64,000 bases of DNA from Fibrobacteria bacterium (lineage in GTDB: Bacteria > Fibrobacterota > Fibrobacteria > UBA11236 > JADFYW01). Shown piece after piece: positions 2,885 to 24,086 of the stretch. Both the position numbers and the translations under genes were made by a program. Numbering within the stretch: position 1 is the first letter of the stretch; each line of letters opens with the position of its first letter. A model generated the notes under the pieces. That model was not told where the DNA came from, made no database searches, and saw only the letters and a program-made list of their open reading frames with translations. The stretch spans positions 59,332 through 123,331 of the forward strand of contig JBNKOC010000008.1 of NCBI GenBank assembly GCA_050294405.1, written 5' to 3'.

Positions 2885-3517
2885 CTATTTCCAAAAATTA
2901 AGCTTGCTCAACCAGGCAGCCCTTTCGGCCTCATCTTTCCATTCAAAGTTTACGAATATTTTTCCACTTGGGTCACGCATTATTTGGCAGTCCGGTTTGC
3001 CATTTACGAAAAATTTTAATTGGAGCACATTGTGGAAATCCGAATCCATACCGGGAATATCCTTATTTAAATCCAGTTTTTTCTCTTCCGCAGTCATTTT
3101 AAAAATAGGCTCTTCTTCAATTTTATCCAGAATAGTTCCGCCCAAATGGATTTCATATAAATCCAATACATAAGCTGATTCTTCGTCATCCCATTTTAAA
3201 AATGCCGGAGGCATGGATTCAAAGTCAGAGGAAACATGAAAACTCAGTTCCAACCTATGGTCCTTTTCAAATTGGCTTTTATCCATAAAAAAGCCTTCCA
3301 TTCTAAAGCGGCTGGAGTGGGTACCGTTGGGTTGGGTATACGGTTCTTCGTAATCTTCTAACCCGGATATTTGCTCCATGGTGTAGAGGTCTAAATCACT
3401 CTTTGGTATTGAAATACCATTAGTTGCATTAGATTCTTTTTCTTTGCCTTTTAACTGATTTGAATAAATCATTGAAAAACAAAGCATTACAAAAAAATAT
3501 CTTCCTGGTTTTTGCAT
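2885..3517 (-). CDS. hypothetical secreted protein
   Basis: N-terminal signal peptide (MQKPGRYFFVMLCFSMIYS); no recognisable domain. Confidence 0.35.
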   Translation of the reverse strand: MQKPGRYFFVMLCFSMIYSNQLKGKEKESNATNGISIPKSDLDLYTMEQISGLEDYEEPYTQPNGTHSSRFRMEGFFMDKSQFEKDHRLELSFHVSSDFESMPPAFLKWDDEESAYVLDLYEIHLGGTILDKIEEEPIFKMTAEEKKLDLNKDIPGMDSDFHNVLQLKFFVNGKPDCQIMRDPSGKIFVNFEWKDEAERAAWLSKLNFWK

Positions 3518-3681
3518 AGTTGATTTAAATTATAAGATGCGCCAAACCAATGCAAACAATAAATTGTTAAAACATTAAATTTTGTGTTTTTGCGTAAAAA
3601 TGGCCCTTTTTTTTGCATTTAAAATAAAAATAGACTCTTAAAATCCTTCATTGATCCAAAATTTGAGGGTATAATTATCTC

Positions 3682-4053
3682 ATGAATCAAAAATTTGACG
3701 AAATTTTAGTTTATAATCGTGTGGGAACCCTTAGACGTGTGACTGTGGAAGCATTAAAAAGGTTGAATTATAGTTCAATAAAAGAGTTCTCAAGCAAGGA
3801 TGAATTGGAAAAAGAGCTTAAATTAGATATTCAATTTTTGTTGATTTTGGAGATAACAGGGGAGAACCCTGTGTCCGAGCTTGAGCTAATTCAAAAATAT
3901 TCGGGCCGTCATAGAATGCTGGTTACTCTTCAAATAAGCAGTAAAGAGTTGATTTTAAAACTTTCTCGTGCTGGGGCTAAAAATGTGCTCTTAAAGAGTT
4001 TGGATATCGGAGGCTTCTCTGAAAAATTACAAACCGCTCTCGGTCCCCGTTAG
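3682..4053 (+). CDS. CheY-like pseudo-receiver domain protein (acid pocket lost)
   Basis: Aligns along its whole length to CheY (ILVYNRVGTLRRVTVEALKRL.. versus [21 protein letters not shown]..). DD is replaced by NR and the phospho-Asp position is Glu (LILEITGENP); the conserved Thr and Lys are retained. RBS GAGGG sits upstream. Confidence 0.5.
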   Translation: MNQKFDEILVYNRVGTLRRVTVEALKRLNYSSIKEFSSKDELEKELKLDIQFLLILEITGENPVSELELIQKYSGRHRMLVTLQISSKELILKLSRAGAKNVLLKSLDIGGFSEKLQTALGPR

Positions 4054-4062
4054 CAGCTGTTT

Positions 4063-4902
4063 TTAAATAAAGAAATCGGCATTGGAAATTTCTCGTTTTA
4101 CCTTTTCCACGAGCTCTTCCAAAACTTCGCTGGAAAGGTTTAAGTCGTGTAAAGCACCCTGGCTACAATTCTCAGGCATTTTCTTGCTCGGCATCAAAAA
4201 ACCAAACAAAGAGGCGTAGAAATCGGCAACATGGACGGCCTGAGTGAGGCCCAGTTCCTGATGGGCGGATTTATCGGGAAAATGATGGAATTCCACGGCG
4301 CACAACAAAGCCTCTGGCAATTTCCATTCCTGCAATAAAACCCTTCCTGCGCTCCCGTGGTCTATACCAAAAAAATCTTTTTCCAAAATGGATATATCAA
4401 TGGATTGGCTTTCTGATTTTTCTATTAGCTCCTGATACTTTTCCGGCTCCAGGCTGGATAAAATCAGAATCCCGATATCATGGAAAAGCCCGGCAATGTA
4501 AGCGGAATCCGGATTTATTTTTTTTTCTTTGGAGCCCTCAATAATAAGTCGGGTTATTAAGGCTACGCTCACAGAGTGTTTCCAAAACTCCTTAATGTCC
4601 ATGTTTTTTGAAGTGGGGGAGTTTTGAATCATGGAAATAGCCAGGGATATTTTACTGACCTCCTTAAGGCCTATTCTGGAAACAGCTTGAGAAATTGATC
4701 CAATGCTTCCATATTTTCCAGCATACTTAACTGAATTGGCAATTTTAAGAAAGTGGGCGGACAGGGCGATATTCTTTTCTATGGTTTGAATGACTTCGGA
4801 AAATTCCACATTGGGATCTTGGATACATTTTAAGAAATATTGGGTTTCAATACCCAGAGAGGGGAGGGAATCCAGCGATAATATTCTTTTAGTTATATCC
4901 AT
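4063..4902 (-). CDS. HDOD domain signalling protein
   Basis: HDOD signatures LFHDIGILIL and EFHHFP...AVHVADFYAS. It is the last gene of the che operon. Confidence 0.75.
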   Translation of the reverse strand: MDITKRILSLDSLPSLGIETQYFLKCIQDPNVEFSEVIQTIEKNIALSAHFLKIANSVKYAGKYGSIGSISQAVSRIGLKEVSKISLAISMIQNSPTSKNMDIKEFWKHSVSVALITRLIIEGSKEKKINPDSAYIAGLFHDIGILILSSLEPEKYQELIEKSESQSIDISILEKDFFGIDHGSAGRVLLQEWKLPEALLCAVEFHHFPDKSAHQELGLTQAVHVADFYASLFGFLMPSKKMPENCSQGALHDLNLSSEVLEELVEKVKREISNADFFI

Positions 4903-4910
4903 TTTAAAAT

Positions 4911-5282
4911 TTACTGTTCGCTATCCAAACACTCCATGATTTTTACCATTAATTCTTCCTGGGTAAAAGGCTTCATTATGTAATTGGTGGCTCCAGCTCC
5001 GATGGCTTCTATAATTTTATCGGGTTCATTTACCGCTGTGAGCATTATTATGGGAATGTTGCTTAAGCTTTCATTTTCCTTAATAGCTTTAACAGCGCTA
5101 AGGCCGTCCATTACAGGCATATCCCAATCCATTAATATTAATCCCACATCGCTATTGTTGCTCAAAGCATCTAAAGCGGCCTGGCCGTTTTCAGCTTCCA
5201 GGGTATTGTGCCCCAGCATATCCAGGGCATTTCGAACCAACTTTCTGATAGTTGGCGAGTCATCAACTGATAGTATGTTCAT
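4911..5282 (-). CDS. cheY: chemotaxis response regulator CheY
   Basis: Single receiver domain: SVDDS, LILMDWDMPVMDG, T at LTAV, YIMKPF. Overlaps the cheR stop by 4 nt. Confidence 0.85.
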   Translation of the reverse strand: MNILSVDDSPTIRKLVRNALDMLGHNTLEAENGQAALDALSNNSDVGLILMDWDMPVMDGLSAVKAIKENESLSNIPIIMLTAVNEPDKIIEAIGAGATNYIMKPFTQEELMVKIMECLDSEQ

Positions 5283-6124
5283 AGAGGCACCCTCTTTTTA
5301 TAATACAATCCTATGGGCTTAATTTTATTGGAAAAGGATTCTGTAATACCTGTTAAACTTTCCGCTCCCCCCACAATTAAAATTCCAAAGGAGGATAATT
5401 TTTGCGCAATTTTTTCAAACATTTGGCTTTTGGTTTTACTGCTAAAATAGATAGCCACATTTCGGCAAAATACAATATCCATGGTGGGGACATCATCAAA
5501 TTTGTCTAAAATGTTTAATCGTTTAAACTGAACTAAGTTTCTTACAGAATCTTTAATAGTCCAAATTTTTTCATCCCCATCAAAATATTGGGATAAATGA
5601 GCTTCATCCATTCCCCGACTCATGGTGAATTTGTCGTATCTTCCCGAACGGGCTAAAAGTAAAATAGGATCTGATATGTCTGTTGCCGTAATTTTAATTT
5701 TCTCTACGGGAAAATCCGGATGTTTCTTTTGGTAGTCCAATATTGTCATGGCAATAGAATAGGGCTCCTGGCCCGTGGAACAGGCGCAACTCCATATATT
5801 TGCAAAAATTCTCTTTCCGCTTTTGAACTCTTCATGTAATTCAGGCAAAAATTCTTCGGCCAACAATTTAAAAGGGTACCCGTCCCGAAACCACAAGGTT
5901 TCATTGGTGGTCATAGCATCCAAAATTTTATCCCTAAGACCCGAGGCTTTTTCTGATACAGCCTTTTTGTGGAGCTCCCCAATGCTCTTGCATCCATTGG
6001 TAGCCATTAAGACGGTGAGGCGGCTTTCCACTAAATATTCTTTTTCATCTCCCAGACAAATACCGCAATGCTCTTCGATAAACGAGCGGATATCCAAAAA
6101 TTCCTGCCGGGTCATGATGCTCAT
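5279..6124 (-). CDS. cheR: chemotaxis protein methyltransferase CheR
   Basis: TNETLWFRD, IWSCACSTGQEPYSIAM (SAM-binding), FCRNVAIYF. Confidence 0.9.
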   Translation of the reverse strand: MSIMTRQEFLDIRSFIEEHCGICLGDEKEYLVESRLTVLMATNGCKSIGELHKKAVSEKASGLRDKILDAMTTNETLWFRDGYPFKLLAEEFLPELHEEFKSGKRIFANIWSCACSTGQEPYSIAMTILDYQKKHPDFPVEKIKITATDISDPILLLARSGRYDKFTMSRGMDEAHLSQYFDGDEKIWTIKDSVRNLVQFKRLNILDKFDDVPTMDIVFCRNVAIYFSSKTKSQMFEKIAQKLSSFGILIVGGAESLTGITESFSNKIKPIGLYYKKRVPL

Positions 6125-7186
6125 TTAAACTTTTACCCTCTCCTGGGATATAATTTCAATGGCCTGGGAAATCTCATCTACATCCAGTTCCAAATCAGAT
6201 AAACCAGCATCCACAACAGCCTTTGGCATTCCGTAAATGGTACAGCTGGACTCGGATTGGGTAATGGAGTAGCAACCTTTTTTCTTTAGGGCTTTAACTC
6301 CCTCAAGGCCGTCCTGACCCATTCCTGTCAGCATAATAGAGGCTGTGGAAAAACGGTAGTTTTTTGCAATGGATTCAAACAATACATCTACAGAGGGACG
6401 GCAACTATTCACTTTTTCCTTTTCATTGATATCCAGTTTATATTGAAACCCCTCTTTTACCAACTCCATGTGTTTTCCGCCCGGAGCGAAATACACAGTG
6501 TTTGCCTGAAGCTCCATGTTAGGTTCAGCTTCGCATATCTTAATAGGAGTTAATTTATCCAAATTGGCCGCCAGGGACTTTGTAAAGTTCGCAGGCATAT
6601 GTTGCACTACTAATATTGGCACCTGAGATGATTTGGTTAACTTTGAAAAAATTTGGGTTAAAACTTTAGGACCCCCGGTACTCACTCCGATGGCAATTAG
6701 TTGGACATCTTTTGGGAGCGCGGTATTTAAATTTTTACTGGGTTTTTGTTCTATGCGGGATGTTCGTTTAGGGGACTGTGCAGCAACCAAGCTTAAGCAG
6801 TTACTCAAGTGTTCCTTTAATTTCCCAAAGTTTTCGTCAACGCTGGAACTTCCCGGTTTAGGGATAAAATCCAAGGCGCCCATTCTAAGGCCCATAATAG
6901 TGTCCGGGGCATTCTTTTGGCTAATGCCACTAATCAAAACCACAGATGTATTAGGGTATTTTTGCAGAATTAGCCCCAGGGTTTGCACGCCGCCCATACC
7001 TGGCATATGTATATCCAACAATACCAAATCAGCTTCTTTTTCTTTGAGAACTTCCAAGGCGTTTTCCCCAGATGAAGCTTCATCTATTATGTCTACATTT
7101 TCAAAATGGCTCAGTGATTTTCTGATTACCTTGCGATAGAGCAGGTTATCATCCACTATTAAAACTTTGATTTTGGAAGAGTTCAT
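6125..7186 (-). CDS. cheB: protein-glutamate methylesterase CheB (REC + methylesterase)
   Basis: N-terminal receiver (VLIVDDNLLYRK...DIHMPGMGG). C-terminal esterase motifs IAIGVSTGGP, VVQHMP, RPSVDVLF, TGMGQDG, YGMP. Confidence 0.9.
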   Translation of the reverse strand: MNSSKIKVLIVDDNLLYRKVIRKSLSHFENVDIIDEASSGENALEVLKEKEADLVLLDIHMPGMGGVQTLGLILQKYPNTSVVLISGISQKNAPDTIMGLRMGALDFIPKPGSSSVDENFGKLKEHLSNCLSLVAAQSPKRTSRIEQKPSKNLNTALPKDVQLIAIGVSTGGPKVLTQIFSKLTKSSQVPILVVQHMPANFTKSLAANLDKLTPIKICEAEPNMELQANTVYFAPGGKHMELVKEGFQYKLDINEKEKVNSCRPSVDVLFESIAKNYRFSTASIMLTGMGQDGLEGVKALKKKGCYSITQSESSCTIYGMPKAVVDAGLSDLELDVDEISQAIEIISQERVKV

Positions 7187-7190
7187 AAAG

Positions 7191-7673
7191 TCAATAATTG
7201 CTTTTAGCTACCTTTTGCTCCAATATGTTTAGGAGGTTCAGTACAATTATTAAATTGTCGTTTTGCTTAATTATTCCATCCACCATATCGCTGTGAATGC
7301 CTGTTACATTGGCCGGTACAGGCTCAATATCTGTTTCTGCTAAATTTACAATATCACCGACCTTATCCACTAAAAGGCCTATTTTTTCTTTTTGCAAAAA
7401 CCCCAATTGGTTTTGTCCGGAAGGCCAATCCGGTTTATCTTTTAAAACCAGACAGTGGGAGTCTTTTCCTATTTCAATGTTATCAAATCCTATACAATAG
7501 GGAAGATCCATTACTGTAATGATTTGGCCTCTTAAGTTTAACAACCCCGTTATAAAAGTCGGGGCCAAATCCACTTTGGATACTTCCAGATTCTGGTTTA
7601 TTTCTCTTATGTACCTTATATCCAAGGCGTATAATTTGTCGTTTATATAAAAGGTGGTAAAAGAAAGAGCCAT
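7191..7673 (-). CDS. cheW: chemotaxis coupling protein CheW
   Basis: 160-aa single CheW-like domain (YALDIRYIREI...LLNLRGQIITVMDL). Confidence 0.8.
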   Translation of the reverse strand: MALSFTTFYINDKLYALDIRYIREINQNLEVSKVDLAPTFITGLLNLRGQIITVMDLPYCIGFDNIEIGKDSHCLVLKDKPDWPSGQNQLGFLQKEKIGLLVDKVGDIVNLAETDIEPVPANVTGIHSDMVDGIIKQNDNLIIVLNLLNILEQKVAKSNY

Positions 7674-7679
7674 AATATG

Positions 7680-10600
7680 TTAGTTTAAAAACTGGCTTAA
7701 GGTTAATAGAATTTTCTTTTTATCCCATTTGGATTCCACAGCGTCAAAATCCAACTTTCGGTCCCGTTCCTGCGCCGGAATTACACCGGTGCTGCTCATA
7801 GCTACCACAGGAATACTTTTTAAGGAGTCCGAGGATTTTATTTTTGAGGCGAGCTCGTAGCCATCCATTCCGGGCATGTTTAGATCCGATAAAATCAAAT
7901 CAAAATTTTCCTGGCCGGAAAGGGCGTCCCAGGCTTCTTTGCCATTGGAACATATTTTCAATTCGCAATTGGGGTGATCTAAATAAGCCCGAAGCAGTTT
8001 TCCGAAATAATCCGTATCTTCTGCAATTAAAATTTTCTTTTGATTTAAAAAGTCGTAATTAAATTTGTGTTTTGGTTGAGCTTTTTCCACAATTTTAAAA
8101 AGGTCCAATATAAGCAACATATTTTTGTTTACAATTTGGGACCCTAAAATGCCTTCGGGGCTGGTTCCGCTTTGTTCCAGATTGCCCATGCAATTTACAG
8201 TATCAAAAAGTTCGCTTGCTAAAATGCCCACCTGGTTTTCATTCAATTTGGGGATAATTACAAATTCATAGGGGAAATCCGAATCTCCCCGGGAGATAGG
8301 CAAATAGTCGTTGAGTTCTATTAAAGGTAAGGATTTTGATTCGTATTTTAAATAAAGTTTGCCGCTGATGTTCTCCACATTTTCCCTATGAATTTTTTCA
8401 ATTCTGGAAATCATGGATAAGTTAAAAGCCAATAATTCACTGCCTCCAACCTTAAAACTTAACATGGCCTGTGCTTCTTCCAACTGCCGTTCTTTTTCCA
8501 TTTTCGCTTCTTCTATAGAGCTTTCGGCAATATCATCAAATTTTAATTTGGCCATTTCTGATATGCCTACCGAATCCAATATCATGGCAATTTGCCCGTC
8601 TCCCAAAATGGTGACGCCGCTGTAGCAAGGGCTGTCTTTTAAAAAAGCGCTAAGGGGCTTCACCACAATTTCTTCATTGTTTATTACCGAGTCCGCAATT
8701 AAGCCGTAGTGATTTTTACCTATGTTTATGACGCAAATAATAACGCTGCCTGTGGCATTTTGCCGTCTATCAGGATTTTTTCTTCTTTCCTGAATCTCTT
8801 CGGCGATTTCCTGCCCATTTCTTCTATCCGCCATATGTATGCGATGATTTGGGTGGCGCTTGTTGGTTTCGCTGTCCAAATATGTGGTTTGGATGTTAAG
8901 CACATCGGTAAGTTTCACAAGCGGCAGCAATTTGCCCCGAAGGCGTAAAACTTCAAAGCCATTCACATTTTCTATTTTTTGGCTTATTTCCGAGTTCTTT
9001 ATGCGCACTAATTCCTCCAGGCCGACCTGGGGAAGCGCAATTTTTCTTCCCTCTACAGATAAGATAAGAGAAGGTATAATGGCCAATGTTAAGGGCAACC
9101 TTAATGTGATAAGCATGCCCTTATCAAACTCGGAATCCACTTCAAGTATTCCGCCCAACTTCTCCACATTGGTTTTTACCACGTCCAAACCAACTCCTCG
9201 GCCAGATACATTGGAAATATTTTTGGCCGTGGAAAAACCGGGTCTAAAAATCAAATTCTTCTTTTCATTTTCCGAAAGAATCATGGCCTCGTCTTCCGAG
9301 ATGATCTTTTTATCAAGGGCCTTAGCCACAATTTTTGGAATGTTTAAACCTGCACCATCGTCTTTTATTTCAATGACTATTTTTCCGCTTTTGTGATAGG
9401 CGCTTAATTGGATAAACCCCTGTTTGTTTTTTCCCTTTTGCTCTCTTTCTTCGGGGGGTTCAATCCCATGATCGCAGCAGTTTCGAATGAGGTGAGTAAG
9501 AGGATCTGTTAAAAGTTCCAGCACGGACTTGTCCATTTCCACTTCTGAACCTGTGATGTGGAGTGAAATTTCTTTGCCTAACATCTTGGAGAGATCTCTT
9601 ATGACTCGAGGAAATTTGTTGAATAGAAGTCCAATGGGCTGCATGCGGGATTGCATAATGCCTTCCTGCAAATCACTGGTGATACGGGAAAATTGCTGAA
9701 TCAGGGAATTGATGCTTGTAAAGTCGGATAATTTTTTAGAGCTGGCCTGGCTGTAAACGCTTTTTATTTGGGAACAATGGTTGGAAATATTTCCTTGTAA
9801 GTTTTGGATTTTTTCTGGCTCTGCGCTGGGAAAAGCCTGAGTTACAGATTGCATAATCTGGTTCTGAAAATCCTCCATGAGTTTTTCCACAAGTCCCAAA
9901 CCCTGGTTCTGCCCATCTAAAGTTTTCAGAGGCTGATTAAATTGCTGCATAATCTGGTTGCGGCTAAGAACCAGTTCACCCGCCAGGTTCATCAGGTTGT
10001 TGAGCAAGTCCAGTTTTACTCTCAGAGTTTCATTGTTGCTGTTTGCCGCTTTGGCCTTCTTTTCATTCCCCGATGTTTTGATAGTTTCAATGGCTTTTTC
10101 CCTGGTCTTTTTCAAGTCTGTTTTTAGGGCAGTGTCATCAAACTTCCGGATTTGGGCAGGGTCTATGTTAAGAGCCAGTTGGGCGTATTCCTCTTCTAAA
10201 ACCGAGGTAAACAATATCAAAGCCGGTTGTTTGGCTTCGCCCCTTCCCTTTGCGCTCTTTTTTGGCTTTTTTTCCTGGGGAATTAAATGAATTCCGGCGA
10301 TGTCGCCCAGCTTTCGCCATTCATTTAAAATGGGATCTTCTTCAGGGTTGTTTGCCTGAATTCCTTCTTCCCAATTTATTTCATATATGTAATGGCCTTG
10401 TTGTATATGGCTATTTAATTTTTGCTCGCTAAGTTCCTTGTAAACGGATAGGATGTATTTAAAATCAAATTTTTCGGAAAGTTCAGCGTTTTGAGAGTTT
10501 TTCTTCGGGTTGGGGGAGTTTTGCCTCGCTGGTTCAATATTATCAGCGCCTGGCTCAAGCGCCTTTAGCTTAACGATAACATCCTCAATTTCCAGTTCGT

Positions 10601-10937
10601 TACTTTTTTCAAGTTCATCCAGTAAATGCTTGAGTTTATCCATCCCTTCAAATAAGACATCAATTATTTCTACAGTAATTTCCTGTTGCTTATCTCGAAG
10701 CCTTCCCAACAGGTTTTCCAGCTCGTGGCTCAAATCGCGGATGTTTGTAAAACCAAAAAAACTGAATCCGCCTTTTATGCTGTGTATAGCTCTGAAAATA
10801 TGATTTAATATTTCATCGGAAACATTTTTGCCTGATTTTTCTAATTCCAGAATATCTGGCTCAATGTCGCTAAGATGTTCCAGGGACTCCTGGAGCAATT
10901 CAGCAACTAATTCATTGTTTCCATCCATAATTTGCAA
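7680..10937 (-). CDS. cheA: hybrid chemotaxis histidine kinase CheA (Hpt, dimerisation/HATPase, three CheW-like domains, C-terminal receiver)
   Basis: Hpt HSIKGG. N-box HLIRNCCDHGIE, G1 IKDDGAGLN, G2 GRGVGLDVV. Three CheW-like segments. C-terminal receiver ILIAEDTDYF...LILSDLNMPGMDG. Confidence 0.9.
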   Translation of the reverse strand: MQIMDGNNELVAELLQESLEHLSDIEPDILELEKSGKNVSDEILNHIFRAIHSIKGGFSFFGFTNIRDLSHELENLLGRLRDKQQEITVEIIDVLFEGMDKLKHLLDELEKSNELEIEDVIVKLKALEPGADNIEPARQNSPNPKKNSQNAELSEKFDFKYILSVYKELSEQKLNSHIQQGHYIYEINWEEGIQANNPEEDPILNEWRKLGDIAGIHLIPQEKKPKKSAKGRGEAKQPALILFTSVLEEEYAQLALNIDPAQIRKFDDTALKTDLKKTREKAIETIKTSGNEKKAKAANSNNETLRVKLDLLNNLMNLAGELVLSRNQIMQQFNQPLKTLDGQNQGLGLVEKLMEDFQNQIMQSVTQAFPSAEPEKIQNLQGNISNHCSQIKSVYSQASSKKLSDFTSINSLIQQFSRITSDLQEGIMQSRMQPIGLLFNKFPRVIRDLSKMLGKEISLHITGSEVEMDKSVLELLTDPLTHLIRNCCDHGIEPPEEREQKGKNKQGFIQLSAYHKSGKIVIEIKDDGAGLNIPKIVAKALDKKIISEDEAMILSENEKKNLIFRPGFSTAKNISNVSGRGVGLDVVKTNVEKLGGILEVDSEFDKGMLITLRLPLTLAIIPSLILSVEGRKIALPQVGLEELVRIKNSEISQKIENVNGFEVLRLRGKLLPLVKLTDVLNIQTTYLDSETNKRHPNHRIHMADRRNGQEIAEEIQERRKNPDRRQNATGSVIICVINIGKNHYGLIADSVINNEEIVVKPLSAFLKDSPCYSGVTILGDGQIAMILDSVGISEMAKLKFDDIAESSIEEAKMEKERQLEEAQAMLSFKVGGSELLAFNLSMISRIEKIHRENVENISGKLYLKYESKSLPLIELNDYLPISRGDSDFPYEFVIIPKLNENQVGILASELFDTVNCMGNLEQSGTSPEGILGSQIVNKNMLLILDLFKIVEKAQPKHKFNYDFLNQKKILIAEDTDYFGKLLRAYLDHPNCELKICSNGKEAWDALSGQENFDLILSDLNMPGMDGYELASKIKSSDSLKSIPVVAMSSTGVIPAQERDRKLDFDAVESKWDKKKILLTLSQFLN

Positions 10938-11042
10938 ATATTGGGCGGGTTTTCACAAAAGGGCCCGTTTAAAATTCATCTTAGTATACACCCAATGCAA
11001 ATCAGGCTTCAAGAAATAAAAAAGAGCTTTCTTAATGAAAAG

Positions 11043-11435
11043 CTAATTGGCAGAAATGTTGGGGATGGGGGAGAGCAGGTATTTCTTTAGAAAATTTTCA
11101 AATTCTCCACGATTTATGGGCTTTGCCATAAATGCGGTGGCCCCAATATCCAGCAAGCTGCCAATTTCTTTAACAGAAATAAAGGCTGAACACATAATTA
11201 TGGGAATATTCACAAAATCCTGCTGCTTTCTGGTTTCTTTAATGAATGTTTTACCATCCATTTCCGGCATTTTGTAATCCACTACAATGGCGCTAAAGTC
11301 CGGATTATCTTCTAGCATTTGCAGTCCCCGTAACCCATTACTGGCTACTATAGATACAATTCCCATGGACTCCGCAATTCTGAGAATGAGCCTTTGAGTC
11401 ATGCGTTCGTCTTCTACAATTAAAAGTTTTTTCAT
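11043..11435 (-). CDS. single-domain response regulator (CheY-like), first gene of the che operon
   Basis: LLIVEDERMTQRL...VVDYKMPEMDG...MCSAF...FMAKP. Confidence 0.8.
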   Translation of the reverse strand: MKKLLIVEDERMTQRLILRIAESMGIVSIVASNGLRGLQMLEDNPDFSAIVVDYKMPEMDGKTFIKETRKQQDFVNIPIIMCSAFISVKEIGSLLDIGATAFMAKPINRGEFENFLKKYLLSPIPNISAN

Positions 11436-11619
11436 GAGAATTTATGGGATAAAATTTGCCTTACTATTGCACCTATTTTAAAATTTTGTGTCTTTTTATT
11501 TCAATCTAAATCGAATCCTTTTTTAAAGCCCTGAATCATTTTGGCGCAATGATTTAAATTGAAATGCTCTAAAAAACTACAAACAGCCCAAAAATGGCAA
11601 TATTTACGCTGTTTAAGGC

Positions 11620-11634
11620 TGGCACTTCCTTTGC
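11620..11634 (+). promoter_or_regulatory. sigma-54 (RpoN) -24/-12 promoter upstream of clpB
   Basis: TGGCAC-ttcct-TTGCA exactly matches consensus TGGCAC-N5-TTGCW, about 25 nt upstream of the clpB ATG. RBS GGAGG at 11649-11653. Confidence 0.6.
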
Positions 11635-11659
11635 AAATACCATTAGCAGGGAGGAAAAA

Positions 11660-14320
11660 ATGAAAAAGTTAACCTATCTCAGTCAACAAGCCTTTGACGG
11701 GGCGCACAATATCCAGAAAAATGCAGGGCATCCTGAACTAAATTCTGTTCATTTGTTAAAGGGAATTTTGGATGTGGGCCAGGCAGTTTTGGAAAAACCT
11801 CTTAGGGAGTTGAAAATCAATGCGCAGGAGCTGCTTCAAAAGGCCGATCAGAATTTACAAAAGATGGCCGTGGTTTCCGGTTCCCAGACGGAGCCACAAA
11901 CATCATCTGACTTAAGGAAAGTCTTGAATGCGGCAGATAGCAATGCAGGCCAAATGGGGGATGAAGTTATAACCATTGAACATATCTTTTTGGGCATGCT
12001 TGAGAACAAACAGTGTTCCGAGTTAAGAGATGTATTTGCAAATGTTACTAGCAATGTATTTGAAGCTCAAAATGCCTTTAAACGTTACCGTGGGGGCAAA
12101 GGAAAGTCTAATCGAAAGGCGGATTCCCAAAACGCCGAAGAGCAGTTTAATGCTTTGGGAAAATTTGGAATGGATTTGGTGAATGCCGCCAAGGAAGGAA
12201 AGCTGGATCCCGTTATTGGACGGGATGAAGAAATCCGCAGGGTAATACGGATACTGTCCCGCAAAACCAAAAACAATCCTGTTCTGGTAGGAGAGCCCGG
12301 AGTGGGTAAAACTGCCATTGCCGAAGGGTTGGCACAGCGTATAGTAAAAGGAGATGTTCCCGAAACTTTAAAAGATAAAACAATTTTTAGCCTGAATTTG
12401 GGATCCTTATTAGCTGGCGCAAAATACCGTGGGGACTTTGAAGAAAGGCTCAAATCGGTTTTGGAAGAAATCGAATCTTCGGAAGGAAATATCATTTTAT
12501 TTATAGATGAACTCCACACTATTGTGGGTGCCGGAAAGACAGAAGGCTCCATGGATTTGGGTAATATGTTAAAGCCCAAATTGGCTCGGGGCGAGTTGCA
12601 TTGTATAGGAGCTACCACATTAAACGAATATCAAAAATATATTGAAAAAGATGCCGCTCTGGAGAGAAGGTTCCAAAAGGTAATGGTGGATGAGCCCAGT
12701 GTGGAAGAAGCCATTTCTATTTTGCGGGGAATTAAGGAACGCTTTGATAAACATCATGGGGTCCGTCTTCAGGATTCAGCCCTGGTGAGTGCTGTTAAAC
12801 TGTCACATCGATACATATCCGACCGTTATTTGCCGGATAAGGCTATTGACCTGATTGACGAGGCAGCAGCCACGGTTAAAATTCAATTGGATACCGTACC
12901 CGAATCACTGGATAGCCTTCAACGCAAACTCCTGCAAATGCAAATTGAAGAAAAGGCTCTTAAAAAGGAAAGGGATGCCAAAAGCAAGGAGCGTTATAAC
13001 GAACTTAAAACCCAAATTTCGGAAATTCAAAAAGTAGTTGAGTCGCAAACCAACCAATGGAAAGCCCATCGGGAGCGCATTGAAAATATTAGAAAACTGC
13101 AGGAAGAGCTTGATGAAATAAAACGGCAAATCCAAAAAGCAGAAAGTGAATATGATTTAAACAAAGCTGCAGAACTTAAATACAACAAGCTTGTGGCGGC
13201 AGAAAATAAATTGGAGAGCTTTCGCAATTCCGTGGAAAGTTATGGAAGCGAAATTTCAGAAGAGGTGAGCTCCGCAAACATCGCTGAGGTGGTATCCCGA
13301 TGGACAGGAATCCCCATTCACAACTTGCACCAAACAGAACGCCATAAAATACTGGAATTACCTCAGACTCTTAAAAACAGGGTGGTTGGCCAGGATGAAG
13401 CGGTGGATATTATTGCCAATGCCATACTTAGAAACAAGGCTGGCATAAAAGAAGACAAGGGCCCCATTGGAAGTTTCTTGTTCTTAGGCCCTACCGGAGT
13501 TGGAAAAACAGAACTAACCCGTGCGCTCGCGGCTGCTCTGTTTGACGTTGAAGAAAACATGGTACGCATCGATATGAGTGAATACATGGAAAAGCACTCC
13601 GTGGCCAAATTAATTGGAGCTCCTCCGGGTTATGTGGGGTATGATGAAGGTGGCCAGCTTACTGAGGCTATTCGTCGCAAACCCTATAGCGTCATTCTCT
13701 TGGACGAAATTGAAAAAGCCCATACAGATGTATACAATATGTTGCTGCAAATTTTTGAGGATGGCCGATTAACAGATGCCAAGGGTAGGGCGGTTAATTT
13801 TAAAAACACCCTTATTATCATGACTTCGAACATAGGAGCAGAACGTTTTTTATCTGAAGGGAAAATAAAAAAAGAGGATATGATGCACTTGCTGAGGCAA
13901 ACCTTCAAGCCTGAATTAATCAACCGCCTGGATGGAATCATACCTTTTAATCCATTAACATCAGACAAAATGGGTAAAATTGTAGAACTTCGACTTGCAG
14001 AGCTTGCGGCAAGGTTAAAAGATTTGGACATCCATTTTGTTCCCAGTCAAAATGCAATTGAACAAATCGCCTCCCAAAGTTTTGAAAAAGAATTCGGGGC
14101 CAGGCCGGTAAAACGTTTTATTCGGGATAAACTGGAAACTCCTTTAAGCCGGATGCTTATTTCCGATGAGCTGAAAAAGGGAGACACTGTCACAGTCCTG
14201 GTTAAAGATGGCGAATTTGAATTTAGGGTGACTCCCAATGGAAAAAGCCTGGATTTCGCTCAAAATTCTGGAGCGCAGCCGGAGGAAAACCAGTCCGAAA
14301 AATTTAAAAGAGCCTCGTAA
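11660..14320 (+). CDS. clpB: ATP-dependent chaperone ClpB (AAA+ disaggregase)
   Basis: Start moved to MKKLTYLSQQAFDGA (ATG 11660, RBS GGAGG); the ORF track start at 11594 overlaps the promoter. Two AAA+ modules with Walker A GEPGVGKT and GPTGVGKT and a long middle coiled coil. 886 aa. Confidence 0.95.
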   Translation: MKKLTYLSQQAFDGAHNIQKNAGHPELNSVHLLKGILDVGQAVLEKPLRELKINAQELLQKADQNLQKMAVVSGSQTEPQTSSDLRKVLNAADSNAGQMGDEVITIEHIFLGMLENKQCSELRDVFANVTSNVFEAQNAFKRYRGGKGKSNRKADSQNAEEQFNALGKFGMDLVNAAKEGKLDPVIGRDEEIRRVIRILSRKTKNNPVLVGEPGVGKTAIAEGLAQRIVKGDVPETLKDKTIFSLNLGSLLAGAKYRGDFEERLKSVLEEIESSEGNIILFIDELHTIVGAGKTEGSMDLGNMLKPKLARGELHCIGATTLNEYQKYIEKDAALERRFQKVMVDEPSVEEAISILRGIKERFDKHHGVRLQDSALVSAVKLSHRYISDRYLPDKAIDLIDEAAATVKIQLDTVPESLDSLQRKLLQMQIEEKALKKERDAKSKERYNELKTQISEIQKVVESQTNQWKAHRERIENIRKLQEELDEIKRQIQKAESEYDLNKAAELKYNKLVAAENKLESFRNSVESYGSEISEEVSSANIAEVVSRWTGIPIHNLHQTERHKILELPQTLKNRVVGQDEAVDIIANAILRNKAGIKEDKGPIGSFLFLGPTGVGKTELTRALAAALFDVEENMVRIDMSEYMEKHSVAKLIGAPPGYVGYDEGGQLTEAIRRKPYSVILLDEIEKAHTDVYNMLLQIFEDGRLTDAKGRAVNFKNTLIIMTSNIGAERFLSEGKIKKEDMMHLLRQTFKPELINRLDGIIPFNPLTSDKMGKIVELRLAELAARLKDLDIHFVPSQNAIEQIASQSFEKEFGARPVKRFIRDKLETPLSRMLISDELKKGDTVTVLVKDGEFEFRVTPNGKSLDFAQNSGAQPEENQSEKFKRAS

Positions 14321-18147: not shown

Positions 18148-18280
18148 TCCCCAGGTTTAACAGGGTATTCCATATTTCCCTTAAATTGAGAAAATAAGAG
18201 AAAAATCGGCAAATGTTAAGAAAAACCTGGTTAAATGCCAAAAAGTCTCATTTTAGCCAAAAATTGGGGCTTGTCCCTGG

Positions 18281-18316
18281 AAAAAGAAAGCGGGCGAGTC
18301 GGGGGACTCGCCCGCT
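18281..18316 (-). terminator. GC-rich 12-bp perfect hairpin plus U-tract on the minus strand, in the leader region of the hem operon
   Basis: AGCGGGCGAGTC-gggg-GACTCGCCCGCT. On the minus strand it is followed by TTCTTTTT. A second 10-bp perfect hairpin lies at 18326-18354 (GATATTCCAA-N9-TTGGAATATC). Confidence 0.5.
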
Positions 18317-18670
18317 ATGGTGGGTATTCGATATTCCAATTTTGGGGGTTGGAATATCTTGGTAGGGTTTTTTTGGATGTATGTAGGTTGTATCATTTTT
18401 TTTACATTCATTCAAGTAAAATTTTTAATTATTAAACAAAAATTAAACGGTCTAAAGTTCATGACCATTATTTAAAGACTTGGGGCAATAAAATTTCTAG
18501 TTTTAAGCCAGACTGCATTTTTTAAAAATGAACAACCCCAAGCATTAAGCAGGTTGGTTATGCTCAAAATTAAAGGGCATCAATTTGCATCGGGATAATG
18601 TAAAGGGTAAGTAAACTGTCTAAACAATTTGTGCACCCTTTCCCGGGGGCGGTTAAAAGGATTCTCTGTT

Positions 18671-20524
18671 ATGATACAGTTAAATACACTCACACCCACA
18701 GGAATATTGTTGGTAGACGATGATCCAAGTTCTCTTGCGGTAATGGAAAGCAGCCTCAAGGCCGATTTCGAGATTTTTAAGTCTTCCAATGTTGCCGCTG
18801 CCCAAGATATTCTTAGCACTGGGAAGATCGCAGTTATTGTTTCAGATTTAAAAATGCCCGGAGAATCCGGGCTTGAACTTTTGAGAAAGGCCAAAGAAAA
18901 TTTCCAGGATGTTCCCTTAATTTTGGTAACAGGCGAAGGAGACAAAAGTTCAGCCATAGAGGCCCTAAAGTTGGGAGCTTACGATTACATTGAAAAACCT
19001 ATTCACAAGCAAGAATTATACAATAGCGTCAAACATGCCTTTGATTCCTTTGCCTCAAAACACACTGCCCGGGAGTACCAAAGAGTTTTAAAGTTGTTGG
19101 AAGCGGGGGTCCAATGTGCAGGAGAAGCCATTTTTATTGGATACCTTTCTTCGGAAAATGGGGATGGGGTTATCGAATATGTGAACAATGCTTTTACCCG
19201 TCAAACAGGGTTGGCTGCCAAGGATATTATCGGAAAGTCACCACGGGTATTTCAGGGGAAGGAATCTGACCCATTATTTCTGGAAAAATTGCGCTCTTCC
19301 ATTGAAAATAATCGCGATTATTTAGGGGAAACTCTGAATTACCGGAAAAACGGCACCAGCTACTTTTCAGAGTGGCAAATAAGCCCTCTGTATCTTGATG
19401 AAACACCCACCAAGTACTGGATTTGTGTTATGCGCGACATTAAAGAAAAAAAGGTGGTAGAGGAAAGACTATTGCAAATAGAAAAAGAAGTGGAGTCTTT
19501 AAAAGGCAACCTGAAGGTTGAAAACCTAAAATACCCTGGCGCTTTTCAAAATATTATTACTCAAAATTTGAAGATGTTTGGCCTATTCCATTACATCGAA
19601 TTGATACAAAATTCTCAGCAACCCATTTTGCTTTGTGGGGAACCTGGAACCGGAAAGTCCTTATTGGCGGAGGCCATATATATTGCCTCAGGGATGCCGG
19701 GAGCTTTCCATCGTTTTGATTGTGATTTAGGAAGCACGCAGTTGGAATTGGATAAGCTCTTTCAATCCTTAAAGGATAATGGAAATAACGGAACCCCTAA
19801 CGGCAGCAATGGAGCTCAAAAAGTTCAGGGGGTGGTCTACATAAGAAATGTGCACAAACTCCCCCTTCCCAGTCAGGCTAAATTACTCCGATTTTTACAA
19901 GAGCTGGAATTTCTGGGTATGAATGATGTGAATAGCCTTTCCGGTGGGATTAAAATATTGGCTTCCACATCCAAATCACTTAATGAGTTGGCCGACTCTG
20001 GCAGTTTCAGAAGAGATTTGTACTACAAGCTCTGTCACCATCAAATAGCCTTGCCAGCTCTTAGGGAAAGGGTGGATGATTTGCCGGTTCTCATAAACCA
20101 TTTTCTGGCCATTGGAGCTCAAACTATGGGGATGAATAAACCTTCTTATCCCAAAGAGCTTTTGACACTGCTTTCTGCCTATCATTTTCCCCAGAATGTG
20201 GAAGAGCTTAGAGATATGGTCTTTCGGGCTTTGGAAAACCACAATCGGGGTATATTATCCATGGATTCCTTCAAAGACTCACTGCAAAAAACAGAAAATG
20301 CTAAGGGAAGTTCTACTAGAGACGCCATGGTGAAAGTGAATCGAAAAGAATCTTTAGTTTCTTTTTCCAGCCGTTTGCCTACACTAAGAGAGATGACCAG
20401 CGAACTAATTTTAGAAGCTCTGCGCCGCTCAAATGACAACCAGGGCATTGCTGCAAAAATTTTAGGAGTCAGCCGTCAGGCCTTAAACAAAAGGCTTAAC
20501 CGCCTGGGCTCCGGCGATAATTAA
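18671..20524 (+). CDS. REC-PAS-AAA+-HTH regulator, NtrC-like but with a degenerate sigma-54 activation module
   Basis: Receiver (ILLVDDDPSS...VSDLKMPGESG), PAS, Walker A GEPGTGKS, Fis-type HTH (AAKILGVSRQALNKRL). ESELFGH/GAFTGA are absent and Walker B DE is replaced (GVVYIRNVH). The ORF track starts at 18629; ATG 18671 is more likely. Confidence 0.7.
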   Translation: MIQLNTLTPTGILLVDDDPSSLAVMESSLKADFEIFKSSNVAAAQDILSTGKIAVIVSDLKMPGESGLELLRKAKENFQDVPLILVTGEGDKSSAIEALKLGAYDYIEKPIHKQELYNSVKHAFDSFASKHTAREYQRVLKLLEAGVQCAGEAIFIGYLSSENGDGVIEYVNNAFTRQTGLAAKDIIGKSPRVFQGKESDPLFLEKLRSSIENNRDYLGETLNYRKNGTSYFSEWQISPLYLDETPTKYWICVMRDIKEKKVVEERLLQIEKEVESLKGNLKVENLKYPGAFQNIITQNLKMFGLFHYIELIQNSQQPILLCGEPGTGKSLLAEAIYIASGMPGAFHRFDCDLGSTQLELDKLFQSLKDNGNNGTPNGSNGAQKVQGVVYIRNVHKLPLPSQAKLLRFLQELEFLGMNDVNSLSGGIKILASTSKSLNELADSGSFRRDLYYKLCHHQIALPALRERVDDLPVLINHFLAIGAQTMGMNKPSYPKELLTLLSAYHFPQNVEELRDMVFRALENHNRGILSMDSFKDSLQKTENAKGSSTRDAMVKVNRKESLVSFSSRLPTLREMTSELILEALRRSNDNQGIAAKILGVSRQALNKRLNRLGSGDN

Positions 20525-20539
20525 AAAAGAAAAAAAAAA

Positions 20540-20567
20540 AGAGCCCTGACCAGGAGGCTCTTTTTTT
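20540..20567. terminator. bidirectional rho-independent terminator
   Basis: A-run, then AGAGCC-ctgaccagga-GGCTCT, then T7. Confidence 0.6.
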
Positions 20568-20786
20568 ATTTAGGAGTTTTCAAAAGTCCGTTGCGCGAGT
20601 TATTTAATTTCATTATATGGGAAACCAACCAAGGTTTCAATATTTTTTTTAAAAGAATTTGATTCTCTATGTATAGGATATTGGGCTGTTTGGGAAATTG
20701 TATTTTTGTCTGTCAAGAAAGCATGGCAAGGGGAAATTTTTGCCCACTAAAAATCTAAAAGTTCTATATCTTAGATTGAATTTCAA

Positions 20787-21185
20787 ATGGCTGAGCGGTA
20801 TGATTATACCGAGGAAGTTATGAAATTCTTACTTGCAGATGATTCAAAAACAATTCGGCGGTTGTTAAAAACCTATTTAGGCAGCATGGGTTTTGAAGAT
20901 TTGGTGGAAGCTCAGGATGGAGAAGAAGCTTTGGAAATGTTGAAGGCTGAAATTCCTGATGTATTGATCCTGGATTGGAACATGCCTAAAAAATCAGGGA
21001 TTGAAGTTTTAAAATCCGCCCGGGAAGAAGGCGAGTTTAAAGAATTGAAAATTTTAATGTGCACATCAATGAGTGAAAAAGAAAATGTTATTGAAGCCAT
21101 TAAAGCTGGCGCTAACAATTATATGACCAAGCCTTTTTCAGAGGATATTCTAAAAGAAAAATTAGGGGCTTTAGGAATTATATAA
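20787..21185 (+). CDS. CheY-like single-domain response regulator
   Basis: FLLADDSKTIRR...LILDWNMPKKSG...NNYMTKPF. Alternative start at ATG 20820. Confidence 0.8.
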   Translation: MAERYDYTEEVMKFLLADDSKTIRRLLKTYLGSMGFEDLVEAQDGEEALEMLKAEIPDVLILDWNMPKKSGIEVLKSAREEGEFKELKILMCTSMSEKENVIEAIKAGANNYMTKPFSEDILKEKLGALGII

Positions 21186-21207: not shown

Positions 21208-21588
21208 ATGGGAACAACAATTAATGTGGCGGTACTGGGAGCAAGCTCCAACCCCGAACGTATTTCCAACCAAGCAGTGGAAAGGCTGTTAAGCTATGGC
21301 CACAAGGTTTTTCCAATTCACCCCAAAGAAGAAGAAGTTCATGGACTCAAAGTTTTGCGGAAACTTTCAGATATTCCGGAAAAAATCCATACGCTTACTA
21401 TGTATGTATCCGAAAAACTCTCCACTCCCATGACCGATGATATCTTAGCTCTGTCTCCAGAACGCATTATCTTTAATCCCGGTGCAGAAAACCCCGGTTT
21501 GGCCTCTGTGGCCCAGGCTCAGGGCATTGAAACGGAAAATGCCTGTACATTAGTGCTTTTAGGTACAGGCCAATTTATAAATAGCTAA
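21208..21588 (+). CDS. CoA-binding domain protein (YccU-like)
   Basis: INVAVLGASSNPERISNQAVERLLSYGHKVFPIHP pattern of CoA-binding fold proteins. Confidence 0.6.
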   Translation: MGTTINVAVLGASSNPERISNQAVERLLSYGHKVFPIHPKEEEVHGLKVLRKLSDIPEKIHTLTMYVSEKLSTPMTDDILALSPERIIFNPGAENPGLASVAQAQGIETENACTLVLLGTGQFINS

Positions 21589-21602: not shown

Positions 21603-24086
21603 TCAGGCCACTGAATATTCCGGCCCCATCCATTTTGAAATTTCCATTTTAGAAAACTCTTTGGAGCCATACTCTGCAGCCATCTTAATCAGGGGAGAAG
21701 CGCTATTTCTGTCTTCCAGTTCGATTATCCATTTGGACATTTTTACCAAATCGGGATGATTGTCCGCTAAAACTATGCAATGCCCCAATTTGGCCAAACT
21801 TAAAAGGGCAATGGCCAGCTTTTTTAGATCTTCAAAATGAAGTCCGTGGCTGGGACCATCTAATAAAAATACACTGGGCTCTAGCCTGGAATTTGCCAAT
21901 TGTAAGGCCAGCTTAATACGCTGGTTTTCTCCTCCGGACAGGCTTTCGGTATTTTGGTTGAGTGGTAAATAGCCAAGGCCTAAAAGGTTTAAAATTTTAA
22001 GCTGCCGCATAATACGCGGGTAATTCCAAAAAAACTCCAAAGCATCATCCACAGTTAAAGATAAAGCTTCCCATATGTTTTTGCCTTTGATATATACATC
22101 TAAAATGTCGGGTTTATATCGTTTGCCCCCGCAATCTTCGCATAGGGTTTTTATTTCTCCCAAGCCTTCTACCTGGCTTTTGATTTGCCCGTGGCCCTGG
22201 CAACTGGGGCAAGCCCCTTCTTTGGTGTGGTTAGAAAAATGGGCGGCCTTGTACCCTCTTATTTTTGCTTCGGTGGTGGAAGCGTATAATTGCCTTAAAG
22301 GGCTGAACAGGGAAAGGGCCGTGGCCATCATGGAATTGGCCCGGCCACGAAGGGGGCTGCTGTCCATGAAAACCCAATTCATATCCGGGGCCAGGGAAGC
22401 ATGCTTTGCTTTAAGGTCTACTAACATCCGGGATTTTCCACAAGCCGTTTTTCCGCATATGATGTTTATGGCACCGCAAAGGAGCAGGGGCTCGGAAATC
22501 TTGGCTTTAATAATGTCCTTTAGTTTGATTTGTGTTTGGGTAGGTTTGGATTGGGGAAGAGCTAAGTCCCGACGGATTTCTTTCTCCAGGAAGTCTAACC
22601 GGAATCCTCCTTTATCTTTGAGATACTTTCCGGTTAAAGGCGAGGAAGTAAGGTCTTTTACCTTTCCTTCAAAAACCAATTGGCCTCCTTCTGGCCCTGC
22701 CCCTGGTCCAAATTCAAATACATAGGCGCAGCTTTTAATGATTTGCAAGTTGTGATCCACCACAATAATATGGTTGCCGTTATCTCTTAGACGTTTTAAT
22801 ATGGATATTAATTTGGGAATTTCTGAAGGGTGAAACCCTAAAGAAGGCTCGTCCAAAATATAGCAAAGCCCGGACATTTGGCTTTTTAAATGGCTAATGT
22901 ATAGGCACCTTTGGAATTCTCCGGTGGATAATTGGGAAAGGGGGGCTCCAAGTTGCAAGTAGTCCATTTCAAGCTCAGCGAAATCAGCTATCCAGCTTAG
23001 GAGCCTTTCCAAAAAGGGTAAAGCAATGGCCTTGTCCTTAAGGCTGTAGCTATTTTCAAGGTCACTTTTGGAAAGCTCGGTAATTAAATTTCTAGCCCAA
23101 GGTAAAAGTTTTGAGAGTTCCCATTGCATCATTTCCGGCAGTGAGATGTCAGAAATTTTCCATTGGAAAATTTCCGGGCTATATCTCGAACCACTACAAT
23201 ACGCACAATTCATTCCGCTTCCTTTGCAGGCAGGGCATGCTCCAAGGGGAGAAAAGTAGGAGAAATGGCTGAGGCTGGGCTGGTTAAAGCCAGCTTCATG
23301 GCCCTGGGCTTCGTAGCTGTTATAGTATATATGAAATTTTTCCTGGCTATAATCCCAAAGTCGCAGTTCTCCTTTGCCCCATTCGTAGGCGGTTTCCAGA
23401 GATTCCTGAATCCGTTTTTGCTGGCTGCCTTTCTCAAAGGAAGAGGCTGATAACATCCACCGGTCCACTAACAGGAAGCTATCTTTATTTTTAAGCTGCT
23501 CGGCTGTTACATCCTCCAAATCAAAGTTTTCTGATTCAATTTTAATTTTGGCAAAACCTGCTTTCCGGCATTTTTCCAAAAGCTCTTCTCCCTTAATATT
23601 TTTCATATGGGATAAGGGTGCCAGCAGTTCCAATTTGTATTTAGAGTTTGGGTTTTTGTTGGCTTTTTCTTTGAGTTGCCTGAATATTTGGGGTGAGCTT
23701 GTGGTTTTAAGGATGTTTCCATTTTGATGAGGTCGGCTCAATTGGGCATAGAGTTTTTGTAATATATAAAGGAGGCCACTGTAGCTTCCTAAACTGGCCC
23801 GACCAGCTTTATTTACTTTTTCGCTGCGTATACAAAGGGCAGGGGTAAGGCCATCCATATTTTCTACTTCCGCTGCGTCTGGGAGTTCGGCTAGCCTTCT
23901 GATAAAGACGGATTGGGACTCTAAAAATTTGCGCTGGCTTTCCGCATACAATGTATCCACAGCCAATGAGGTTTTTCCGGAACCCGAAGGGCCTATAATG
24001 GCCACCAATTCTCCCTTGGGAATTTTGAGGTTTACCCCCTTTAAATTGTGAGTTTTTGCGTTTTGAATCTGAATGTAGTTGCGCAT
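21603..24086 (-). CDS. UvrA-family ABC ATPase, shortened paralog at 827 aa
   Basis: N-terminus matches UvrA ([43 protein letters not shown]). Zinc-finger Cys pairs CPACKGSG and CPSCQGHG, two ABC signatures LSGGE/LSTGE. About 110 aa shorter than canonical UvrA. Confidence 0.85.
   Translation of the reverse strand: [827 protein letters not shown]

Follow-up and report, generated by a model that had tools for sequence, protein, structure and literature searches.

Can a response regulator built like an NtrC-family enhancer-binding protein (EBP) still serve sigma-54-dependent transcription when the motifs of its activation module no longer read as they should, and, if it cannot, what might it do instead? 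The question is raised by a plus-strand gene of a Fibrobacteria bacterium, located at 18671-20524 of the 64,000-nucleotide stretch of contig JBNKOC010000008.1 analysed here (the window). A first-pass annotation, made from the sequence alone, gave its 617-residue product the domain order REC-PAS-AAA+-helix-turn-helix (HTH), and our Pfam profile searches return the same order: REC, PAS_9, Sigma54_activat, AAA_lid_14 and HTH_8. By its sequence the protein is an atypical EBP in the operational sense, combining the AAA+ and HTH architecture of EBPs with an altered GAFTGA motif. Its sigma-54 module is, on the alignments, very probably dead. We think it probable, though well short of certain, that the protein as a whole is a sigma-54-independent member of the NtrC family, an orphan response regulator with a pseudo-ATPase AAA+ domain. 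The first-pass annotation had offered a sigma-54-independent regulator as one of two options; this one matches a documented class of atypical EBPs and is plausible by precedent.

Catalytic and sigma-54-contact motifs of the AAA+ module

As references for the AAA+ module we used solved chains of Aquifex NtrC1 and NtrC4, two alignments of homologs (15 and 76 sequences) and the canonical EBP encoded elsewhere in the window (53268-54623), which carries ELFGHEKGAYTGA, LLDEIGEM, FREDLFYRL and GNVRELEN. The canonical ELFGHxKGAFTGA of loop L1 aligns to KLFQSLKDNGNNG (residues 362-374) in the regulator, and no GAFTGA residue is kept, the Phe and the Thr included. This loss had been recognized in the first pass; the Asn/Gly-rich insert to which it was ascribed does not exist, as L1 has the same length as in NtrC1 and the homologs (alignment gaps do not exceed 1-2 residues) and has been changed by substitution. 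Similarly, the DE pair of Walker B is indeed gone, and its replacement is Arg-Asn rather than the Asn-Val reported earlier: the canonical TLFLDE aligns to VVYIRN (388-393), a segment that the AlphaFold2 model renders as a beta strand (387-392) and that contains no acidic residue. In the other 76 sequences the D and E of these two columns (392 and 393) are invariant (100%).

The damage extends beyond what had been described. The arginine finger (R-finger) consensus is FRxDLYYRL, with R453 100% conserved among the 76 homologs, and here the residue is K453; the sensor II arginine has become E511, and the Gly of L2, the pre-sensor-I loop, is N418. In PspF, NtrC and NtrC1, ATP hydrolysis and engagement of sigma-54 depend on each of these residues. 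We searched for a hidden or shifted GAFTGA or Walker B and found none, either in three-frame translation around L1 or as a register shift against NtrC1, NtrC4 and the 76 homologs; alignment to the NtrC family shows both elements to be lost. As far as the primary structure allows the statement, the earlier claim that the protein has neither canonical ATP hydrolysis nor canonical sigma-54 contact stands. With the GAFTGA loop, the two acidic residues of Walker B, the R-finger and the sensor II Arg all missing, the protein very probably has no role as a sigma-54 motor.

Other parts of the protein are well preserved. Walker A is intact, and so is the phospho-acceptor pocket of the REC domain (D16/D17, D59, T87 and K109, with D59 and K109 invariant and D17 nearly so among the 76 homologs). 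In the 15-homolog alignment the HTH lies near the consensus of the nearest canonical subfamily, and the recognition helix, SRQALNKRL, differs very little from that of its members. The Sigma54_activat profile scores 83.9 bits, versus 243.6 bits for the canonical EBP of the window. In the AlphaFold2 model the AAA+ domain has a predicted local distance difference test score (pLDDT) above 90 except in L1, where it is the lowest in the domain (57 at residues 371-380). The top Foldseek matches of the model are NtrX, NtrC4, NtrC1, LuxO, VpsR and FleQ.

For family identity we relied on NCBIfam equivalog cut-offs. The best models are NtrC, AtoC and NtrX, all far under their cut-offs (193.1 bits versus 558.6 for NtrC, 173.5 versus 600 for NtrX), and TyrR reaches 112.5 of the required 576. 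With scores this far below the cut-offs, the regulator is not an ortholog of a named atypical EBP and represents an independent lineage.

Selective erosion and repeated degeneration among homologs

To describe how the substitutions are distributed, we counted, domain by domain, the matches of the regulator to the 79 alignment columns whose conservation among the 76 homologs reaches 85% or more. It matches 12 of 14 columns in REC, 13 of 15 in the lid (both misses are in sensor II) and all three in the HTH, that is, 28/32 outside the AAA+ core, versus 26/47 inside it. The substitutions gather at the nucleotide-hydrolysis site and in the loops that engage sigma-54; the phospho-acceptor pocket, the P-loop, the lid and the recognition helix are kept. 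Because the losses cluster in the AAA+ core while the other domains persist, the pattern points to a pseudo-ATPase that has been repurposed and speaks against a gene in decay.

How isolated is the protein? No ortholog was found in a word-indexed search of 5.8 billion proteins or in an exhaustive phmmer search against 1.84 billion cluster representatives, and neither the GTDB representative genomes nor an exact-sequence contig look-up added one: they returned only the protein itself or matches of at most 42% identity. The best non-self matches are REC-AAA+-HTH proteins of about 470 residues, 38-42% identical and without a PAS domain. This singleton state is not special to the regulator, because the best non-self match of the ClpB encoded on the same contig reaches only about 57% identity, and its named matches are spread over Fibrobacterota, Sumerlaeota and Planctomycetota; the GTDB representative set does not include the genome, and the whole contig is from a poorly sampled lineage without sequenced close relatives. 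A ClpB identical to that of the window, with the same neighbours (REC, moaC, hemE), is present on the Logan contig SRR36185844_108511, so the same organism has been sampled at least twice.

We surveyed the motifs of 263 near homologs, the regulator included. The great majority, 232, are fully canonical, many of them with GAFT[DS]A variants of the loop, while 30 (about 11%, or roughly one in nine), again counting the regulator, lack a GAFTGA-type L1 or the DE pair. Only four, the regulator among them, have lost all of L1, DE, R-finger and sensor II. Of the 30 degenerate proteins, 25 have a canonical protein as their nearest neighbour. The regulator itself is 32-40% identical to the degenerate proteins and up to 42% identical to canonical ones; being no closer to the former, it does not belong to a clade of degenerate relatives, a possibility that we considered and rejected. 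Given these two observations, degeneration of L1 and Walker B has apparently arisen many times independently in this branch, as judged from the sequences. The degenerate metagenomic homologs include P0292, P0250, P0246 and P0319. The pattern of P0292 is strikingly like that of the regulator (L1 QDaNGNND, Walker B IIKNI, YNL, GNVAEL), yet this protein is no closer to it than canonical proteins are. P0319 is named "sigma-54-dependent Fis family transcriptional regulator" in NCBI. The closest canonical homologs have no shared gene neighbourhood: P0004 is found in a DctB/DctD-like cassette with a DcuA/DcuB transporter, and P0002 has no adjacent kinase.

Orphan status, sensory input and the sigma-54 context

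The coordinates of the gene, its domains and motifs and the sigma-54-related features of the window are collected in the table.

Table. Positions of the regulator gene, its parts and the sigma-54-related features of the window
Feature	Position	Strand	Residues	Basis and remarks
EBP-like regulator gene	18671..20524	+	617 aa	Complete open reading frame (ORF), 617 codons, ATG start; ORF list, Pfam
Shine-Dalgarno-like AAGGA	18657..18661	+		9 nt 5' of ATG 18671; sequence read
REC (PF00072)	18704..19030	+	12-120	Pfam 83.5 bits
PAS_9 (PF13426), S-box PAS, LOV/NifL-like subgroup	19148..19447	+	160-259	Pfam 54.5 bits
Helical J-alpha-like PAS-AAA+ linker	19448..19540	+	260-290	AlphaFold2 helix 260-280
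AAA+ core (Sigma54_activat, PF00158), catalytically degenerate	19553..20047	+	295-459	Pfam 83.9 bits, cut-off 20.2
Walker A GEPGTGKS	19637..19660	+	323-330	Intact; G323, G326, G328 and K329 invariant in the 76-homolog alignment
L1 region KLFQSLKDNGNNGTPNGSNGAQ	19754..19819	+	362-383	Alignments; GAFTGA position is DNGNNG (369-374)
Walker B strand VVYIRNVHKL	19832..19861	+	388-397	Alignments; DE replaced by R392-N393
R-finger region FRRDLYYKL	20006..20032	+	446-454	R447 kept, finger Arg replaced by K453; NtrC1 has FREDLYYRL
AAA_lid_14 (PF25601)	20063..20314	+	465-548	Pfam 51.4 bits
Sensor II PQNVEELRD	20189..20215	+	507-515	GNVREL replaced by QNVEEL (G508Q, R511E)
Fis-type HTH_8 (PF02954), NQGIAAKILGVSRQALNKRL	20384..20503	+	572-611	Pfam 24.3 bits, cut-off 22
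Hairpin with A-run and T-run flanks	20534..20567			Directly 3' of the stop codon; sequence, inverted-repeat and terminator scan
Sigma-54 -24/-12 element TGGCACttcctTTGCA	11620-11635	+		Sole exact match to TGGCAC-N5-TTGCW in the window; chance expectation 0.05
PAS-HisKA-HATPase kinase	52029-53264	+		Canonical two-component sigma-54 module
Canonical REC-AAA+-HTH EBP with GAYTGA and DE	53268-54623	+		Sigma54_activat 243.6 bits; internal control
Second histidine kinase	54592-56190	+		Canonical sigma-54 module, 52029-57515
HAMP-GGDEF protein	56190-57515	+		Canonical sigma-54 module, 52029-57515

The start codon at 18671 is favoured over an upstream in-frame TTG (18629) because it places REC at residue 12, 11 residues from the N-terminus, as in the homologs. 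At the other end the hairpin adjoins the stop codon, which suggests that the gene terminates its own transcript. The terminator scan calls this hairpin on the minus strand and its symmetric A/T flanks fit the plus strand too; it is probably an intrinsic terminator working in both directions, so that the gene would be monocistronic at its 3' end. Beyond it are genes for a CheY-like single-domain receiver (20787-21185) and, at 21208-21588, for a CoA-binding protein. With no histidine kinase adjacent to the gene, the product is an orphan response regulator. The GC content of the gene, overall and at third codon positions, matches that of its neighbours, and we thus see no sign of recent foreign origin.

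On its 5' side the gene shares a 523-bp AT-rich intergenic region with a divergent minus-strand operon (ccsA-like, hemA, hemE). This region contains several repeats. A perfect 12-bp GC-rich hairpin with a T-tail lies on the minus strand at 18289-18316; no ORF ends there and Rfam matches are insignificant only. A possible role is to terminate an unannotated small RNA divergent from the regulator promoter, another to insulate the divergent units from each other. The motif GGGTATTC(C/G)ATATT occurs at 18163-18176 and 18322-18335, and a perfect inverted repeat, GATATTCCAA-N9-TTGGAATATC, spans 18330-18358; together these repeats are candidate operator sites for some factor. Exact copies of the GGTATTCNATATT repeats are found only here, and with mismatches allowed they are not significant window-wide.

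The PAS domain deserves a closer look, since the solved structures closest to it are those of PpSB1-LOV and YtvA (E ~1e-17), and its fold is thus homologous to light-oxygen-voltage (LOV) domains. The alignment to PpSB1-LOV proteins even runs into their J-alpha helix, which corresponds to the PAS-AAA+ linker of the regulator. However, the LOV signature GKNCRFLQG reads GKSPRVFQG, with the adduct Cys (C62 of YtvA) replaced by P191. Of the YtvA residues that we take, from established knowledge of that protein, to contact the flavin, N94 is conserved as N223, and N104 and Q123 are replaced by S233 and M254, respectively. The generic S-box model TIGR00229 alone scores above its cut-off; the YtvA_fam and NifL models reach 86 bits versus 250 and 55 versus 242, respectively. 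A Pro at the Cys position is also found in ordinary tandem PAS arrays (P0264, GKKPGTFQG). We have therefore rejected a LOV photoreceptor. From its sequence we take the domain to be a PAS of the LOV/NifL-like subgroup with an ordinary sensory or dimerisation function, and flavin or another cofactor is possible.

Taken as a sigma-54-independent regulator, the protein would not couple ATP hydrolysis to remodelling of the sigma-54 holoenzyme and would act as a conventional transcription factor. An unlinked histidine kinase would phosphorylate Asp59, and this input, perhaps combined with one sensed by the PAS domain, would be transmitted through the helical PAS-AAA+ linker and alter the dimer or oligomer state of the AAA+/lid scaffold, which may bind nucleotide and not hydrolyse it. 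The altered oligomer state would change the occupancy of DNA sites by the C-terminal HTH and, by analogy with other atypical EBPs, lead to activation or repression of promoters read by a sigma-70-type polymerase.

Several observations weigh against this model. The HTH_8 score barely exceeds its threshold (24.3 versus 22 bits), and nucleotide binding by the intact P-loop is an assumption. There is no ortholog to show that the degenerate state is kept by selection, the best non-self match being only 38-42% identical. No DNA target, cognate kinase or regulated promoter was identified in the window. Finally, the organism uses sigma-54, so a role tied to sigma-54 enhancers is conceivable.

The use of sigma-54 follows from the canonical kinase/EBP pair at 52029-54623 and from the perfect -24/-12 promoter, which lies 25 nt 5' of the clpB start codon (ATG 11660; clpB occupies 11660-14320 on the plus strand, with the ribosome-binding site GGGAGG). 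The mechanical ORF call for clpB (908 residues, start 11594) begins too early and takes in the promoter. To our knowledge, clpB is not usually sigma-54-dependent. GATTT(A/G)AATTGAAAT occurs in two inverted copies, at 11498-11512 and 11551-11565, about 55-120 nt 5' of the -24 element; they are placed like an enhancer, making them a candidate upstream activating sequence (UAS) for some EBP.

A connection between the regulator and clpB had been suggested in the first pass. The promoter itself is real, and the connection comes down to a proximity of 7 kb: the genes between the two are moaC, hemE, hemA and the ccsA-like gene (three of them on the opposite strand), followed by the 523-bp intergenic region. 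The clpB repeats have no close copy near the regulator or elsewhere in the window (one match with three mismatches, 20774-20788, does not stand out from the AT-rich background), no shared DNA motif was found that joins the flanks of the regulator to the clpB enhancer region, and no -24/-12 element is present within 18-21 kb of the window. A GGCAA-N10-TTGCC palindrome 5' of the next gene (20725-20744) was considered as a -24/-12 element and rejected, being at chance level and wrongly spaced.

It is against this background that the other first-pass option, a competitive anti-activator, has to be weighed. In the form weighed here, the protein would hold the UAS of a canonical EBP with a similar HTH, or enter mixed rings in which the missing R-finger and Walker B would poison hydrolysis, and so bring about a REC-gated damping of sigma-54 transcription, for example of clpB. 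The near-identity of its recognition helix to that of the closest canonical subfamily, the conserved oligomerisation scaffold and lid, and the evident use of sigma-54 in this genome (promoter 11620-11635, canonical EBP 53268-54623) all speak for such a role, as does the ability of EBPs to repress in their resting state, documented for FlbD, repressor forms of NtrC and FleQ (PMC12754779). However, the sole canonical EBP of the window is only 28% identical to the regulator and has another HTH, the clpB inverted repeats are not closely copied near the regulator, and no operon or neighbourhood tie to any sigma-54 promoter was found. We know of no characterised atypical EBP that acts as an anti-activator or ring poison, and count this against the option as well. 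We found no evidence for anti-activation, and we consider it unlikely. Its strictest form, a dedicated phosphorylation-gated dominant-negative EBP that competes for enhancers or poisons mixed rings, strikes us as distinctly improbable.

Alternatively, the gene might be a non-functional relic, a duplicated EBP decaying under relaxed selection whose frame is open by chance or through recency. Its singleton status, the loss of 21 of the 47 highly conserved AAA+ positions, the low-complexity NG-rich stretch in L1 and the missing adjacent kinase would all fit. Against this, the 617-codon frame is intact and comes with a ribosome-binding site and a terminator, the AAA+ model is confident, and the whole contig shares the lack of orthologs, as the ClpB comparison (about 57%) shows. 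Moreover, the losses centre on catalytic and sigma-54-contact residues and spare REC, lid, HTH and P-loop, a pattern that neutral decay would not give. We rate a relic as rather improbable. That the protein is still a sigma-54 activator, with a non-canonical contact loop and an unusual catalytic arrangement, as its PF00158 score above the gathering threshold, intact Walker A and L1 of canonical length might suggest, is very improbable when no GAFTGA residue is left, substitutions have removed the D and E of Walker B, the R-finger and the sensor II Arg at once, leaving no acidic residue in the strand, and single substitutions are known to abolish activation in PspF and NtrC.

Other features of the window are given here for completeness. 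A chemosensory-like cluster on the minus strand (2131-11435) encodes PilZ, HDOD, a single REC, CheR, CheB, CheW, a 1085-residue CheA-CheW-REC hybrid and another single REC divergent from clpB; no gene for a methyl-accepting chemotaxis protein was identified among the ORFs scanned there. An 827-residue UvrA-like ABC ATPase (21603-24086, minus strand) is shorter than canonical UvrA, has UvrA_inter and is possibly a class II UvrA paralog. Two large adjacent ORFs of 702 and 550 residues (36625-40364, minus strand) have no Pfam match at E<=1e-5; they adjoin a glycosyltransferase, a DUF2914 protein and an MMPL transporter.

Comparison with characterised enhancer-binding proteins

The closest sequence relatives of the regulator are canonical group-I bacterial EBPs: Aquifex NtrC1 and NtrC4, DctD, AtoC and the EBP of the window. 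They have in common with it the fold, REC, the lid and HTH_8. However, these proteins carry GAFTGA or GAYTGA, hhhhDE, the R-finger and sensor II, and the regulator has none of the four. The precedent for its proposed role comes from atypical EBPs, which include TyrR, HupR, HsfA, PhhR and NtrX (PMC6158489).

VpsR of Vibrio cholerae is without GAFTGA, has ND in Walker B, shows no ATPase activity and activates sigma-70 RNA polymerase (PMC6158489). Both proteins combine REC, an AAA+-like domain and HTH, and in both the acidic pair of Walker B is replaced, by ND in VpsR and by RN in the regulator; VpsR (7v2b) is also a structural neighbour of the model. It differs in having no PAS domain and in being controlled by cyclic di-GMP, whereas the regulator has an S-box PAS and has lost the R-finger and sensor II as well. 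The similarity between the two is low (phmmer 69 bits, in the AAA+ domain) and does not indicate orthology.

The best Foldseek match of the full-length model is NtrX (5m7n, 5m7o and 5m7p), known from Brucella and Caulobacter, with the same REC-AAA+-HTH layout and a non-GAFTGA L1. NtrX is a repressor at a sigma-70-type promoter (PMC6158489). Its L1 is shortened (bioRxiv 10.1101/2023.06.06.543975) and its gene lies in an ntrYX operon with a kinase, while the regulator is an orphan with a rewritten L1 of full length; that it is not NtrX itself is clear from the equivalog score (173.5 bits, cut-off 600). The NtrC proteins of Rhodobacter capsulatus and Caulobacter crescentus, too, are NtrC-family response regulators without GAFTGA, act at sigma-70 promoters and are controlled by phosphorylation of the conserved Asp. 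The R. capsulatus protein needs ATP binding, not hydrolysis, and the Caulobacter protein, a regulator of sigma-70 promoters, needs both Walker A and Walker B (bioRxiv 10.1101/2023.06.06.543975). In these two NtrC proteins L1 was lost by deletion and the Walker motifs work; the regulator has kept the length of the loop and lost Walker B.

TyrR and PhhR, which are sigma-70 regulators, resemble it in their PAS-containing N-terminal region, their AAA+-like domain without GAFTGA and their HTH. TyrR keeps its Walker motifs, and ATP together with tyrosine drives its hexamerisation. Its N-terminal arrangement is ACT-PAS, as opposed to the REC-PAS of the regulator, and the TyrR model (112.5 bits, cut-off 576) does not accept the latter.

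What sets the regulator apart from the characterised atypical EBPs is that its L1 is rewritten, not deleted, that the full catalytic set is lost with the P-loop kept, and that a PAS domain stands between REC and AAA+. With all four catalytic and contact elements gone, it is among the most complete cases. By itself it opens no new mechanism and settles no open question. If it did turn out to be a dominant-negative EBP, it would constitute a built-in brake on sigma-54 transcription in a deep-branching bacterium, possibly acting on stress genes such as clpB. For annotation the consequence is more immediate: the label "sigma-54-dependent Fis family transcriptional regulator" does not fit this protein, and automated pipelines would nonetheless apply it here and to degenerate relatives of the kind, inflating predicted sigma-54 regulons. 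For the family, the recurrent loss suggests that the passage from a sigma-54 motor to a passive DNA-binding scaffold is an easy evolutionary path that has been taken repeatedly.

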